From positions 372,001 to 436,000 of the forward strand of contig JABVCE010000025.1 in the NCBI GenBank assembly GCA_014905635.1: a DNA stretch of 64,000 nucleotides, written 5' to 3'. The stretch's first letter is position 1. Every line of letters starts with the position of its first letter. Positions 53,214 through 57,015 of this stretch are shown piece by piece. Origin of the DNA: Scenedesmus sp. PABB004. Taxonomy: Eukaryota. The position numbers were made by a program, and so were the translations under genes. The notes under the pieces are model-generated. The model saw only the letters and a program-made list of their open reading frames with translations, was not told where the DNA came from and made no database searches.

Positions 53214-56200
53214 TCACTTGCCGCGGCCGCGGCCGCGAAAGCCGCCGCCGCCACGCCCGCCGCGCCCGCCGCGCGCCCCGCGGAAGCCGCCGCCCCTGCT
53301 GCTGCCGCCGCGCCCGCCTCCCCGGCCGCCTCCCCGGCCGCCTCCCCGGCCGCCGCGGAAGCCGCCGCCGCCCCGGCCACCGCGGCCGCCGCCGCCTCCG
53401 CGCCCGCCGCCGCCGCGCCCGCTGCCGCGGCCCTTGCTGCGGCCGCCCTGGTCGGCGCGCCACGCCTCGCTGCGCGCCTTCTGCGGCAGCTGCGCCGCCC
53501 AGGCCTGCTGGAAGCGGTTGCCGCCGGCGTCGCCGTCGTCGTCGTCCTCGTCCTTCTTCTTGCGGACCTTCTTGACCTTGCCGCGGTCGTACTCGGCGTC
53601 CCACTCGTCGCGCTCCGCGCGCTTGGGGCGCCCCGCCCCCGCGCGCAGCGCCGCCGCGGCGGACGCGAGCCCCGCGTCGGCGCCGTCCCAGCCGCCGCCG
53701 CCGCCGCCCACGGCCAGCTGCAGCGCGGCGGCGCCCGTCACCGCGGGCGACGCGGGCGCCTGCTGCCGCTGCTGCGCCTGCTGGGCCTGGCGCCGCTGCT
53801 GCGGCGCCTGCTGCTGGACCTGCTGCGGCGCCTGCTGCTCCGCCGCCTGCTGCTGCTGCTCCTCCGCCTGCCGCCGGCGCTTGGCGGCGCGCTTGTCGCC
53901 GTCGCCGGCGCCCGGCAGCTCCTGCTGCGCGGGCGCCGGCTCGGCCGCCGCGCGCTGGCGCTTGCCGCCGATCAGCCCCAGGTCCACGACCGTGGGCTGC
54001 CGCGCGGCCGCCGCGGCGGGCGCGGGCGGGCTGCCGCCGAGCGCCGCGATCGCCGCGGCGGCCGCCGCCGCGCGCTGGCGGTGCTTGGCGTGCGCCGCCT
54101 GGCGCGCCTTGGCCGCGACGACCGTCTTGTGCAGCGCCATGTGGCGGTCAAAGGAGTTGAGCAGCAGCGCCGGCCGCGAACGCGTGTGGTGGTGGTGCGC
54201 CGCGTGGTGGTGCAGGCCCTTGGCCGGCGAGGGCCCGCCCGCCGCCGCCACAGGCGACTCGACCGCGTCCGGCGACCTGCGCGGCGGCGCGGGGCGGGGC
54301 TCAGGGTCGCGGCGGCGCGCCGGCCCGCGCAAGAGGGGCGGGTTGGGGGCGCGGCGCGGCGCAAGGGGTCGGCAGACAGGGTTTCTGAGGCCCTAGCACT
54401 TTGTCGTCACTGTCACGCTCGGTGCCCAGTGCGTGTCGTCACTCCCCTCGAGCGTACGCGCACGCGCGCGGCCGCTGCGCGGCCGCCGCGCAGCCGTCGC
54501 CCCCCCAGCAGCGCGCTCACCGCGGCTGCGCGGCGCCCGGGCTCGCGTTGGCGGTGGACTCGGTGGACGACGTGGCCACCTTGCGCAGGCCCTCGGCGGC
54601 GCTGGCGCTGCCCGACTGGCCCGCCGCCGCCGCCGCCGCGGCGGCGAGGTGCAGCTGGCGCTGGCGCTCCGCGCCCGTCAGCCCCGCGCCGCCGCCGGGC
54701 GCGGCGGCGCCGCCGCCGCGGCCGGGCGTGCGCGTGCTGTTGCTCGCGGCGCCCGCCGCGTCGGCCGCGGCGGCGCGGTTGGCCGCCGCGGCGGCGCCGC
54801 GCGCAGCCGCCGCGACCGCGGCCGGCAGCGCGCCCGCGCCGGCCTTGGGCGTGCGGCGGACGTAGAAGAGGATGTAGGCCTGCTGCCCCTCGACCGCGCG
54901 CTGCCCGACCTGCGCGACGCGGTGGTCGTCGCAGAGGTGCCAGATGCCGTTCCCCGCCTTGACGTAGCACACGTAGTGCCCGCTGTGCAGCGAGTGCCCC
55001 AGGTGCACGAGCACGGCGTAGAGGTCATACATGACCGGCGCGGCGTGCCCCGCGCCGTGGTGGCCGCCGTGGTGGCCGTGCGCGTGGTGGTGGCGGTGGT
55101 GGCCGCCGGCGGCGTGGGTCATGTAGGGCGCGAGGTCGAGCTCCAGCCCAAACTCCACGCGCTTGCTGAGCTTGTGCCCGCGGCCAAAAAAGTCAAAGCG
55201 CTTCAGGTGCACGGTCAGCACGTTGGGCGCGTCGTCGATGCTGATGCGCTTGTACGCGCGCACCTGGACGCGCGCGGCGCGGCGCGGCGAGCGGCGCGGC
55301 GAGCGGCGCGGGCGCGGGCACGGGAGGTGAGCGGCCGCGCGGCTGCGCGGGCCGCGCGCGGGGAGCAGCCAGCGCGGCGGCGCGGCGCGGCGCGGGGTGC
55401 GGGCGCGGCGGCGCGGGGTGCGGGCGCGGCGCGGCCGCACCAGCTTGTTGTTGCGCGGGCAGCGGTAGCGGTTGTCGCCGTCGAGCACCTCGGCGGCGGT
55501 GAAGTGCTGCAGCGCGCGCGTGAGACTGTGGGCCTTGTTGATCTCGAGGCTCAGGTCCAGGAAGGGGTCGAGCGTGGACGAGGTGTAGTCGACGCCCTCG
55601 CACGTGATCTGGGACCGGCGACGCGCGGCGGTGGCGGGCGAGTTGGGCGCGGGAATGCAGACGCGCGGCGCGGCCGCCGGTGCGTGCCACGCATGCGCGT
55701 GCGCACCTGGCTGCGGAGCTTGCCGCCAAAGATGCGCTGCACAAACGTCGTCGCCGCGAGCTCGGGCGGCGGCTTGGGGCGGATGGGCTTGAGCAGTGCC
55801 TCGTGCATCGCGTCCAGCACGCAGCGCAGGTACTCGTGCGCGTCCTCCTGCCGGCCCAGGCGGAACCTGCGGGCGGCGCGCGGGCGGGCGGCGCGCGCGG
55901 CACGCGGGCGGCGCGCGCTGGTGAGGCGGGCGGCGCGGGGGCGGCGCCGCGCGAGGGGGCGCGGGCGCGCGCGCGGCGCGGCGCGCTTCTGGCGGCGTGT
56001 GTCAGTGTAACTATGACATAAGACAGAGCATCACGTGCCGCGGGCCCCCCAGAACGGGGGGCGTGTGCGGCTCAACTGTGAGCGGATCATCAACCACACG
56101 CCGCGCCCGCCGCGCCGCCGCGCGGCTCCGCACGCGCCCGCGCGCCCCGCCGACGCCGGCCCCGCCGCCGCACCTGCGGTTGATGGCCTTGAGGTTGCGC

Positions 56201-57015
56201 GCGTGCCACTTGGGCTGCACCGGCGCGTGCGACGAGAGCGCGCGCCGGATGTGCGACTGCGTGGCGGCGACGGGGTCGAGCGCCGCCGCCTCGCCCGCCG
56301 CGTTGCTCAGCGCCGCGCCGCCGAGGCAGAGCTCCGCCAGCGGCGCCGTGTGCGTGAGGCACTGCAGGACGCTGTTCATGAAACAGGTGTTGCCCAGGTT
56401 GACCAGGCCCGCGCCCTGCCGCACGGGCCGCGGGGCGCGGCGCGGCGCGTCAGCGCGGCGCGGCGCGCGGCGCGGCGCGCGGCGCGGCGGGGGCCGACGG
56501 GGGCAGGCCAGCGCCGGGGGCGGGGGCGAGCGGCACGGGCGTGCCGCGCCGGCGCGGCGGCCGGCGGCGGCCGGCGGCGCGCCGCAGCCGCCGGCGGCTC
56601 GCGCAGCAGCGGCGCCGGCGGCGGCGCGGCCGCCGGCGCGCCGCGCCGCCCCGCCGCGCGGCCGGCGCGCTCCGGCGTGGGCGCGGGTGTCTCACCGCCT
56701 TGCGGGGCGAGCCCCAGCGCAGCTTGACCGCGCTCTCCGCGCACAGGGGGCGCGCCAGGCCAGGGCTGCTGCCGCCCTTGCCGCCCTCGCGCGGCGTCAC
56801 GCCGGACGGCATCTGCGGCGGGCCGGGCGCCTCGGGGACCGCGCTGGCGGCGCGACGGGCGCGGCGGCGCGCGGCACGGGGCGCACCTCGGGCGCCAGCG
56901 CCACCAGGCGCGCATCCGGCGCGCTGCTGTGCGCGTCGGGCTTCTGCGCCGCCACAAACGTCAGGCGGCGGAACGGCAGGCTGGAGGAGTTGTGGGAGGG
57001 CAGCAGCTCGCGCAT
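53214..57015 (-). CDS. Ubiquitin-specific protease, USP36/USP42/UBP23-like, with a C-terminal RGG tail
   Basis: Cys box GLVNLGNTCFMNSVLQCL, GRQEDAHEY, LTVHLKRF, His box VHLGHSLHSGHYVCYV, QAYILFY, C-terminal DEWDAEYDRGKVKKVR and RGG repeats. Confidence 0.92.
54364..54448 (-). ncRNA. Intronic box C/D snoRNA, predicted guide for LSU rRNA Cm (yeast C2197; snR76/SNORD88/snoR118-like)
   Basis: Terminal stem AGGGG/CCCCU. C GUGACGA (54436-42), D' CCGA (54419-22), C' GUGACGA (54404-10), D CCGA (54369-72). The 10-nt guide GCACUGGGCA is complementary to conserved LSU UGCCCAGUGC. Confidence 0.75.
55996..56100 (-). ncRNA. Intronic box C/D snoRNA, predicted guide for LSU rRNA Am (yeast A2256; snR63/SNORD46-like)
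   Basis: Terminal stem CGUGUG/CACACG. C UUGAUGA (56087-93), D' UUGA, C' GUGAUGC, D CUGA (56002-05). The 11-nt guide GUCAUAGUUAC is complementary to LSU helix 69 GUAACUAUGAC. Confidence 0.85.

Follow-up and report, generated by a model that had tools for sequence, protein, structure and literature searches.

Here, we examined a 64,000-nucleotide (nt) stretch of Scenedesmus sp. PABB004 (contig JABVCE010000025.1, positions 372,001 to 436,000; hereafter the window) and describe on its minus strand a box C/D small nucleolar RNA (snoRNA) that lies in an intron of a USP36-like gene and carries a guide complementary to helix 69 (H69) of large subunit (LSU) ribosomal RNA (rRNA). As read from the DNA alone, this is very probably a functional intron-encoded snoRNA gene, and the green-algal orthologue of human SNORD46, yeast snR63, Arabidopsis U46-1/U46-2 and Ostreococcus tauri Ot-CDsno82. 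The case is carried by the anatomy of the element, its homology, a covarying structure, a conserved host intron and the complementarity between guide and target.

Anatomy of the snoRNA and its target in helix 69

Positions 56104 to 55992, read on the window's minus strand (i.e., the sense strand of the gene), display a complete box C/D snoRNA layout. GTAACTATGAC is the plus-strand text within 55996-56100, and the RNA is therefore encoded on the minus strand. A preliminary description of this DNA had proposed the full C/D architecture on the sense strand, and we located every part of it there, from terminal stem, box C and box D' to the internal hairpin, box C' and box D. The features are as follows; alignment A1 and covariance model R1, named as evidence, are presented with the homologues below.

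55992..56104, minus strand: entire box C/D snoRNA, 10-bp terminal stem included (sequence, fold, match of the custom model R1 at 56100..55995)
56104-56095 with 56001-55992, minus strand: terminal stem of 10 bp, GCGGCGUGUG paired with CACACGCCGC (minimum-free-energy and centroid folds)
56092-56087, minus strand: box C, UGAUGA (sequence; invariant in A1)
56086-56076, minus strand: D' guide region of 11 nt, UCCGCUCACAG (sequence)
56075-56072, minus strand: box D', UUGA (sequence; only GA kept among relatives, G29 and A30 being invariant in A1)
56071-56037, minus strand: internal two-step stem-loop between D' and C' (fold; both helices covary in relatives)
56071-56067 with 56041-56037, minus strand: outer internal stem, GCCGC with GCGGC (fold, covariance model)
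56062-56056 with 56050-56044, minus strand: inner hairpin, GCCCCCC with GGGGGGC around the loop GUUCU (fold, covariance model)
56033-56028, minus strand: box C', UGAUGC (sequence, A1, covariance model)
56017-56007, minus strand: D guide of 11 nt, GUCAUAGUUAC (sequence; 11 Watson-Crick pairs with LSU)
56006, minus strand: spacer of one base, A, between D guide and box D
56005-56002, minus strand: box D, CUGA (sequence, SNORD46 consensus)

Box C lies near the 5' end and box D near the 3' end, and the two are joined by the terminal stem in the register expected of a kink-turn (K-turn), with the stem abutting box D and a 3-nt bulge, GUU, separating it from the GA of box C. The internal boxes D' and C' are linked by the covarying stem-loop, and both are degenerate, as is common for boxes in these positions. 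Folding gave a z-score of -3.18, with an equally good fold in 1 of 200 shuffled sequences. The element also stands out by its base composition, having a GC fraction of 0.59 at 56000-56099 compared with 0.91-0.92 at 55850-55999 (79-92% in the intron flanks overall, 79.1% in the whole window), which bears out the AT-richer island reported earlier. Furthermore, GTCATAGTTACNCTGA with up to two mismatches has a single occurrence in the window, and none of 100 dinucleotide-preserving shuffles contains it. A strict scan requiring UGAUGA, CUGA and at least 5 bp of terminal stem returned this site alone on both strands of the 64 kb.

An rRNA motif scan of genome contigs recovered 23 loci. Two of them, L134 and L142, contain a complete eukaryotic ribosomal DNA (rDNA) unit each, in which Rfam confirmed the small subunit (SSU), 5.8S and LSU; the rRNA motif scan of viral contigs gave no match. 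The D guide GUCAUAGUUAC pairs with LSU GUAACUAUGAC through 11 Watson-Crick base pairs, extension to 13 nt adding none, and GUAACUAUGAC occurs once in each of the two complete units. Counting back from box D, the bases read A1, C2, A3, U4 and U5, the fifth standing opposite the second A of GUAACUAUGAC. Within the 23S rRNA of E. coli K-12, GUAACUAU starts at 1910, hence the second A is A1913. Methylation is predicted on the second A of GUAACUAUGAC; this H69-loop nucleotide corresponds to A2256 in yeast, A3739 in human and A1913 in E. coli. Defined by target, the RNA belongs with the SNORD46/snR63 guides, having a guide of at least 10 nt next to box D and its fifth base on the A2256 equivalent. 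Both earlier statements on this side of the molecule, that the guide is the exact complement of a conserved LSU stretch and that the fifth-base rule lands on yeast Am2256, agree with the 11-bp duplex in L134 and L142, the register count and the published equivalence of Arabidopsis Am2246 (U46-1/U46-2), human Am3739 (U46) and yeast Am2256 (snR63; PMC2685112, Table 2).

In yeast, Am2256 depends on snR63 (PMC5199042), and it is located in the loop of H69 next to pseudouridines 2258 and 2260 (E. coli 1915 and 1917; PMC2794176). The yeast literature further describes the tip of H69 as touching the A-site tRNA and the decoding centre, and for this reason conservation of the guide is to be expected. 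Among the rDNA loci we also noticed two short fragments scoring as eukaryotic LSU (L123, 5680-6085; model positions 2200-2320 and 2439-2605). The contig around them is 1.16 Mb long and bears the label of a bacterial genome, and chimeric assembly or an unusual insertion may account for them.

Host intron, homologues and covariation

The snoRNA is enclosed, on the same strand, by an intron of a gene with a UCH-type catalytic domain, a sense-strand intronic position having been suggested at the outset:

55867..56173, minus strand: host intron, 307 nt, GT..AG, phase 2, splitting the UCH-domain gene between ...KAINRR and FRLGRQEDAHEY
54844..56418, minus strand: UCH/USP catalytic-domain exons of the host gene (PF00443, homologue alignments)
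56418-56174, 55866-55698, 55629-55438 and 55263-54844, minus strand: approximate host exon blocks (homologue alignments)

The flanking exons match Pfam PF00443 (4.9e-31 and 1.3e-11). The best solved relatives of the host protein are human USP36 chains (8bs9 and 8bs3, 8.4e-32), followed by a non-USP36 chain at 5.2e-16, placing the catalytic domain nearest USP36 among the USPs. The nearest named relatives come from Monoraphidium minutum (69% identity over the aligned part), Volvox, Gonium, Astrephomene, Chlamydomonas and Prototheca, with plant UBP23 and animal USP36 ranking after the algal proteins. By these relatives the DNA is that of a chlorophyte, and probably of a chlorophycean. The USP36-like label given previously is fair in light of the domain, the best solved match and the named homologues. 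A weak N-terminal homologue match lies upstream at 57006-56896, and it is plausible that the host intron is intron 2 of the gene. Human USP36 is described as a nucleolar protein that promotes rRNA processing and SUMOylates the snoRNP proteins Nop58, Nop56, Nhp2 and DKC1 (PMC10164564).

The one sequencing run listed for this sequence is a freshwater metagenome (X1), in which 12% of the words occur. We placed its contigs on this region at 80% likeness; positions 56016-56059 were uncovered, and the pieces were mostly short GC-rich partial matches. One X1 contig matches the exon at 55457-55653 with 4 differences in 197 bases, leaving the snoRNA uncovered, and a close relative of this alga may be present at low depth in that sample.

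A scan of metagenome contigs for box C, a gap of 40-70 nt, the guide, one free base and box D yielded at least 122 loci and at least 154 matches, in which short plant-like and long internal-hairpin forms are both present. The window's two exons, spliced, were then searched by tblastn against the 122 loci among the matches listed; USP exons stand beside the snoRNA, on the same strand, in 18 of these (L041; L011/L015/L034/L043/L062; L033; L019; L063/L069; L065; L006; L087/L095; L057/L060; L061/L078, grouped by homology), and the exon alignments break at query residue 93/94, i.e., at the position of the window's intron. With several near-duplicates among them, the USP-hosted loci collapse to about ten distinct sequences of 43-71% GC, and their USP exons are nearest to Dunaliella (80-90% identity), Volvocales, Prototheca or unnamed proteins. 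The remaining 104 loci among the matches listed have other hosts, or flanks too short to tell. As a positive control, L080, whose RNA resembles that of O. tauri, has Cpn60 exons on either side of it in the same orientation, in line with the published host of Ot-CDsno82.

Twelve distinct USP-hosted sequences, with that of the window left out, were aligned by MAFFT (alignment A1). RNAalifold recovered from A1 the terminal stem, the outer internal stem right after the GA of box D', and the inner hairpin. Across the 16 pairs, standard-paired cells amount to 89.4%, against 61.3% in shuffles; 15 of the 16 pairs have changes on both sides (1 of 500 shuffles as high), and the covariation score is 0.808 (0 of 500 shuffles as high). 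When the 3' partners were slid by 1-3 columns, 22-44% of cells were paired. All three helices covary in the homologues. The covariance model built from A1 (R1), run over the whole window with filters off, matched 56100..55995 on the minus strand at 74.9 bits (E 2.4e-16, a rough value owing to shortened calibration); the match is full length (model positions 1-104 of 104) with all 16 pairs standard, and the runner-up in the window scored 10.1 bits. The window RNA is by this measure a member of the algal long form of U46, with all three helices. Conservation in related algae, whose failure had been named beforehand as a ground for rejecting the snoRNA, extends in A1 to the boxes, the D guide and the three helices, in homologues that were selected by the pattern of box C, guide and box D.

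These data bear directly on whether the motif could be a chance resemblance, or an antisense rDNA fragment inserted into the intron, an explanation that has nothing but the shortness of the rRNA complement (11 nt) in its favour and to which we give next to no credence. It is effectively refuted by the full-length match to R1, by the 0 of 100 shuffles that hold the motif, and by an rRNA complementarity that ends exactly with the 11-nt guide and gains nothing at 13 nt.

Compared with the window RNA, the USP-hosted homologues have the same gene, intron position, covarying helices, boxes and D guide, and differ in their D' guide regions. Four of them (L057, L060, L061 and L078) have in common with it a terminal stem of CGUGUGG/CACACG. 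The Dunaliella-like loci (L011, L015, L034, L043 and L062; ~1001-1468) differ additionally in holding three tandem U46-type copies in the homologous USP intron, of which two are nearly identical and the third has a different D' region. We also observed that the loop of the inner hairpin (A1 columns 43-59; window 56044-56062) is U-rich in many algal homologues, e.g., GUUCU, GUUCC, GUUAU, GUCCCU and GUUUCU, and that the O. tauri RNA has a comparable AUUCG loop; on sequence grounds, this recurrence suggests a conserved feature beyond the mere juxtaposition of D' and C'.

Among characterized counterparts, human SNORD46 (U46, RF00218) is likewise an intronic box C/D snoRNA, with an identical guide and D box UGUCAUAGUUACACUGA and the same H69 adenosine (28S Am3739). 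It is hosted by RPS8 rather than by a USP gene, and outside the guide it has no detectable sequence similarity to the window RNA, the full Rfam model staying below threshold. Yeast snR63 (25S Am2256) has the same H69-loop target and is likened to the window RNA by target, not by sequence; in yeast, most such snoRNA genes have transcription units of their own. In O. tauri, Ot-CDsno82 is a 98-nt uncapped intronic C/D snoRNA that was detected by RNA-seq and annotated as a SNORD46/snR63 homologue, with a Cpn60 host gene and predicted targets at 25S A2099 and A1996 (PMC7671301). It shares with the window RNA the guide and D box UGUCAUAGUUACACUGA and the internal D'-C' hairpin, and differs in its chaperonin host, its second predicted target A1996 and its D' region, AUAACUAAUCG...; one group of metagenomic homologues is near-identical to it. 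Arabidopsis U46-1 and U46-2 (79 and 83 nt) are shorter than the window RNA and have the same D-guide target; U46-1 is intronic (At3g51800) and validated by northern blot, and the other locus lies in an intergenic cluster (PMC2685112), compared with the USP intron here.

Expression, assembly into a small nucleolar ribonucleoprotein (snoRNP) and methylation, which we infer from what is known of the family, would proceed along the following lines. The snoRNA would be transcribed within the USP36-like pre-mRNA and freed from the spliced intron, exonucleases trimming the RNA back to a terminal stem protected by the snoRNP. The C/D and C'/D' motifs would fold as K-turns, with the internal stem-loop bringing D' and C' together, and would bind Snu13, Nop56, Nop58 and fibrillarin. 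The 11-nt guide upstream of box D would then pair with the LSU H69 loop, and fibrillarin would 2'-O-methylate the adenosine opposite the fifth guide base, the second A of GUAACUAUGAC.

The D' side and the points that weigh against the reading

When UCCGCUCACAG was compared with the rDNA of L134 and L142, the best matches reached 9.5/11 and 9/11, which are equalled by 35 of 300 and 226 of 300 shuffled guides, respectively; no target above chance was found for the D' guide in these two complete eukaryotic units. Nor is the region conserved among relatives, even in L041, the closest relative by host gene. These results sit well with the earlier suggestion that the D' element may be an orphan guide. 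Two candidates were set aside. The best D' match in L134, UUGUGAGCGAA, falls in variable sequence that directly precedes the conserved CGAAAGGGAAUCCGG and is not shared by other loci, and a 10-nt complement of the internal stem to the SSU of L142 was judged to be chance because it falls outside the guide position.

It is conceivable that the snoRNA is a dual guide, in which UCCGCUCACAG also directs methylation on the G of CUGUG*AGCGGA in a species-specific target, e.g., a GC-rich expansion segment of this alga's rRNA, a small nuclear RNA or some other RNA. The 11-nt spacing from C to D', followed by the conserved GA and by the stem that forms the C'/D' motif, would suit such a function, and the O. 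tauri homologue has its predicted second target at 25S A1996 (PMC7671301). Plant-like homologues, moreover, have D' regions complementary to AAACAUAGCUUUUAGAA in the LSU of L142, ~107 nt upstream of the H69 site (10 nt in L002, 11 nt in L091, and 14 nt in L020 and L064), near the second target predicted in O. tauri (A1996, relative to A2099). The window RNA lacks this complement, and also the AUAAC.AAU with which many relatives begin the D' region; it would either have lost the plant-like D' guide or never had one. Dual guiding seems unlikely to us, given best rDNA matches that shuffled guides equal at the rates above, a D' element unconserved even in L041, and the self-complementarity of GCUCACAGUUGAGC, which could sequester D'. 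We observed that GCUCA-CAGU-UGAGC (56067-56083, minus strand) is a perfect 5-bp palindromic hairpin. It runs from the 3' half of the D' guide through box D' into the start of the internal stem and could compete with the C'/D' fold. Most likely, judging by the sequence, the D' side carries no conserved rRNA guide in this species.

Several points weigh against a functional SNORD46/snR63-type snoRNA. Box C is preceded by U instead of the purine of RUGAUGA, the internal boxes read UUGA (D') and UGAUGC (C'), and the lack of a target for the D' guide leaves half of the RNA without a demonstrated role. Rfam at gathering thresholds gave no match anywhere in the window. Under permissive thresholds, SNORD46 (RF00218) matched locally over model positions 82-98 (UGUCAUAGUUACACUGA, 17/17 identical), scoring 14.2 bits where gathering requires 40 (E 5.9), alongside a weak match to snoR442. 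The Rfam check proposed in the preliminary description consequently came out in part, the guide and box D agreeing with the SNORD46 consensus and the full model falling below gathering; since the threshold was missed, we file the RNA as a functional orthologue by guide and target, and not as a member of the sequence family defined by the Rfam seed. Additionally, the loci behind R1 were picked by the pattern of box C, guide and box D, which leaves the stems, C', D' and the spacing as the independent evidence.

The same irregularities, i.e., the non-purine before box C, the degenerate D' and C', and the orphan D' guide, would be expected of a decaying or silent relic, a snoRNA-derived intron sequence that no longer makes a stable snoRNP. 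We consider this very unlikely, as nothing is missing from boxes C and D, the guide, the spacer or the 16 base pairs of the model, and many diverged lineages have the snoRNA in this very intron. A GC content of 59% kept within an intron of 79-92% GC likewise argues for purifying selection. The functional snoRNA is the reading that we retain.

A second candidate and the meaning of a shared host

A second candidate of the box C/D class occupies 54450..54362 (minus strand), where the match to SNORD88 scored 36.5 bits (gathering score, 46; E 2e-4 over the whole window). Its terminal stem is 7 bp long (CGAGGGG/CCCCUUG), and all four of its boxes carry U-to-C changes, C and C' reading UGACGA and D' and D reading CCGA. 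A U-U pair beside the tandem G-A pairs is near-universal in K-turns, and these boxes would put C-C in its place in both K-turns of the candidate. Its D' guide, GCACUGGGCA, complements LSU UGCCCAGUGC, a stretch that precedes the H69 motif by 59-60 nt in 16 of the 23 rDNA loci; the seven loci without a match to UGCCCAGUGC are archaeal, fragmentary or too short upstream. The Cm predicted for the candidate lies 59 nt before the predicted H69 Am, which is exactly the yeast spacing of Cm2197 (snR76) and Am2256. A putative further intron that starts with GTGAGC at 54520 (54300-54520, minus strand) contains the candidate and probably belongs to the same gene as the host of the first snoRNA. Downstream on the same strand (53214-54392), an open reading frame ends in a long RGG/GAR-type (glycine-arginine-rich) repeat, ...GRGGGGFRGGRGGGRGG..., of a type typical of nucleolar proteins. 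No convincing copy of the candidate's guide was found in the flanks (up to 1 kb) of the 122 loci among the matches listed.

With its target known and members already catalogued in plants and a green alga, the U46/SNORD46/snR63 family gains a new member in the window RNA. A full-text search found no published account of a USP-gene host for a U46 snoRNA, a search that did not cover the Chlamydomonas snoRNA catalogue (PMC2390600). Going by the sequences compared here, the snoRNA appears to have been kept in the same USP36-like intron across diverged chlorophyte lineages. Tentatively, and with more doubt than confidence, we propose that in core chlorophytes the USP36-like gene is an anciently fixed, dedicated snoRNA host; here it would carry two intronic guides for LSU residues that lie 59 nt apart within and beside H69 (the Cm2197/Am2256 equivalents), and their output would be coupled to an enzyme acting on the guides' own snoRNP. 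The second guide RNA has C for U in all its boxes, with C-C replacing U-U. If the second candidate is functional, it would amount to a natural double covariation, in which the snoRNP core tolerates a swap from U-U to C-C under extreme GC pressure, and its concerted U-to-C boxes could inform the rules of K-turn recognition.

Overall, with this snoRNA a conserved guide for ribosome modification is added to the annotation of a very GC-rich green alga, a gene that protein-only pipelines and Rfam thresholds miss. Mamiellophyceae, land plants and humans use other hosts, and the conserved USP36-like intron would be usable as a marker for the evolution of snoRNAs and their host genes.

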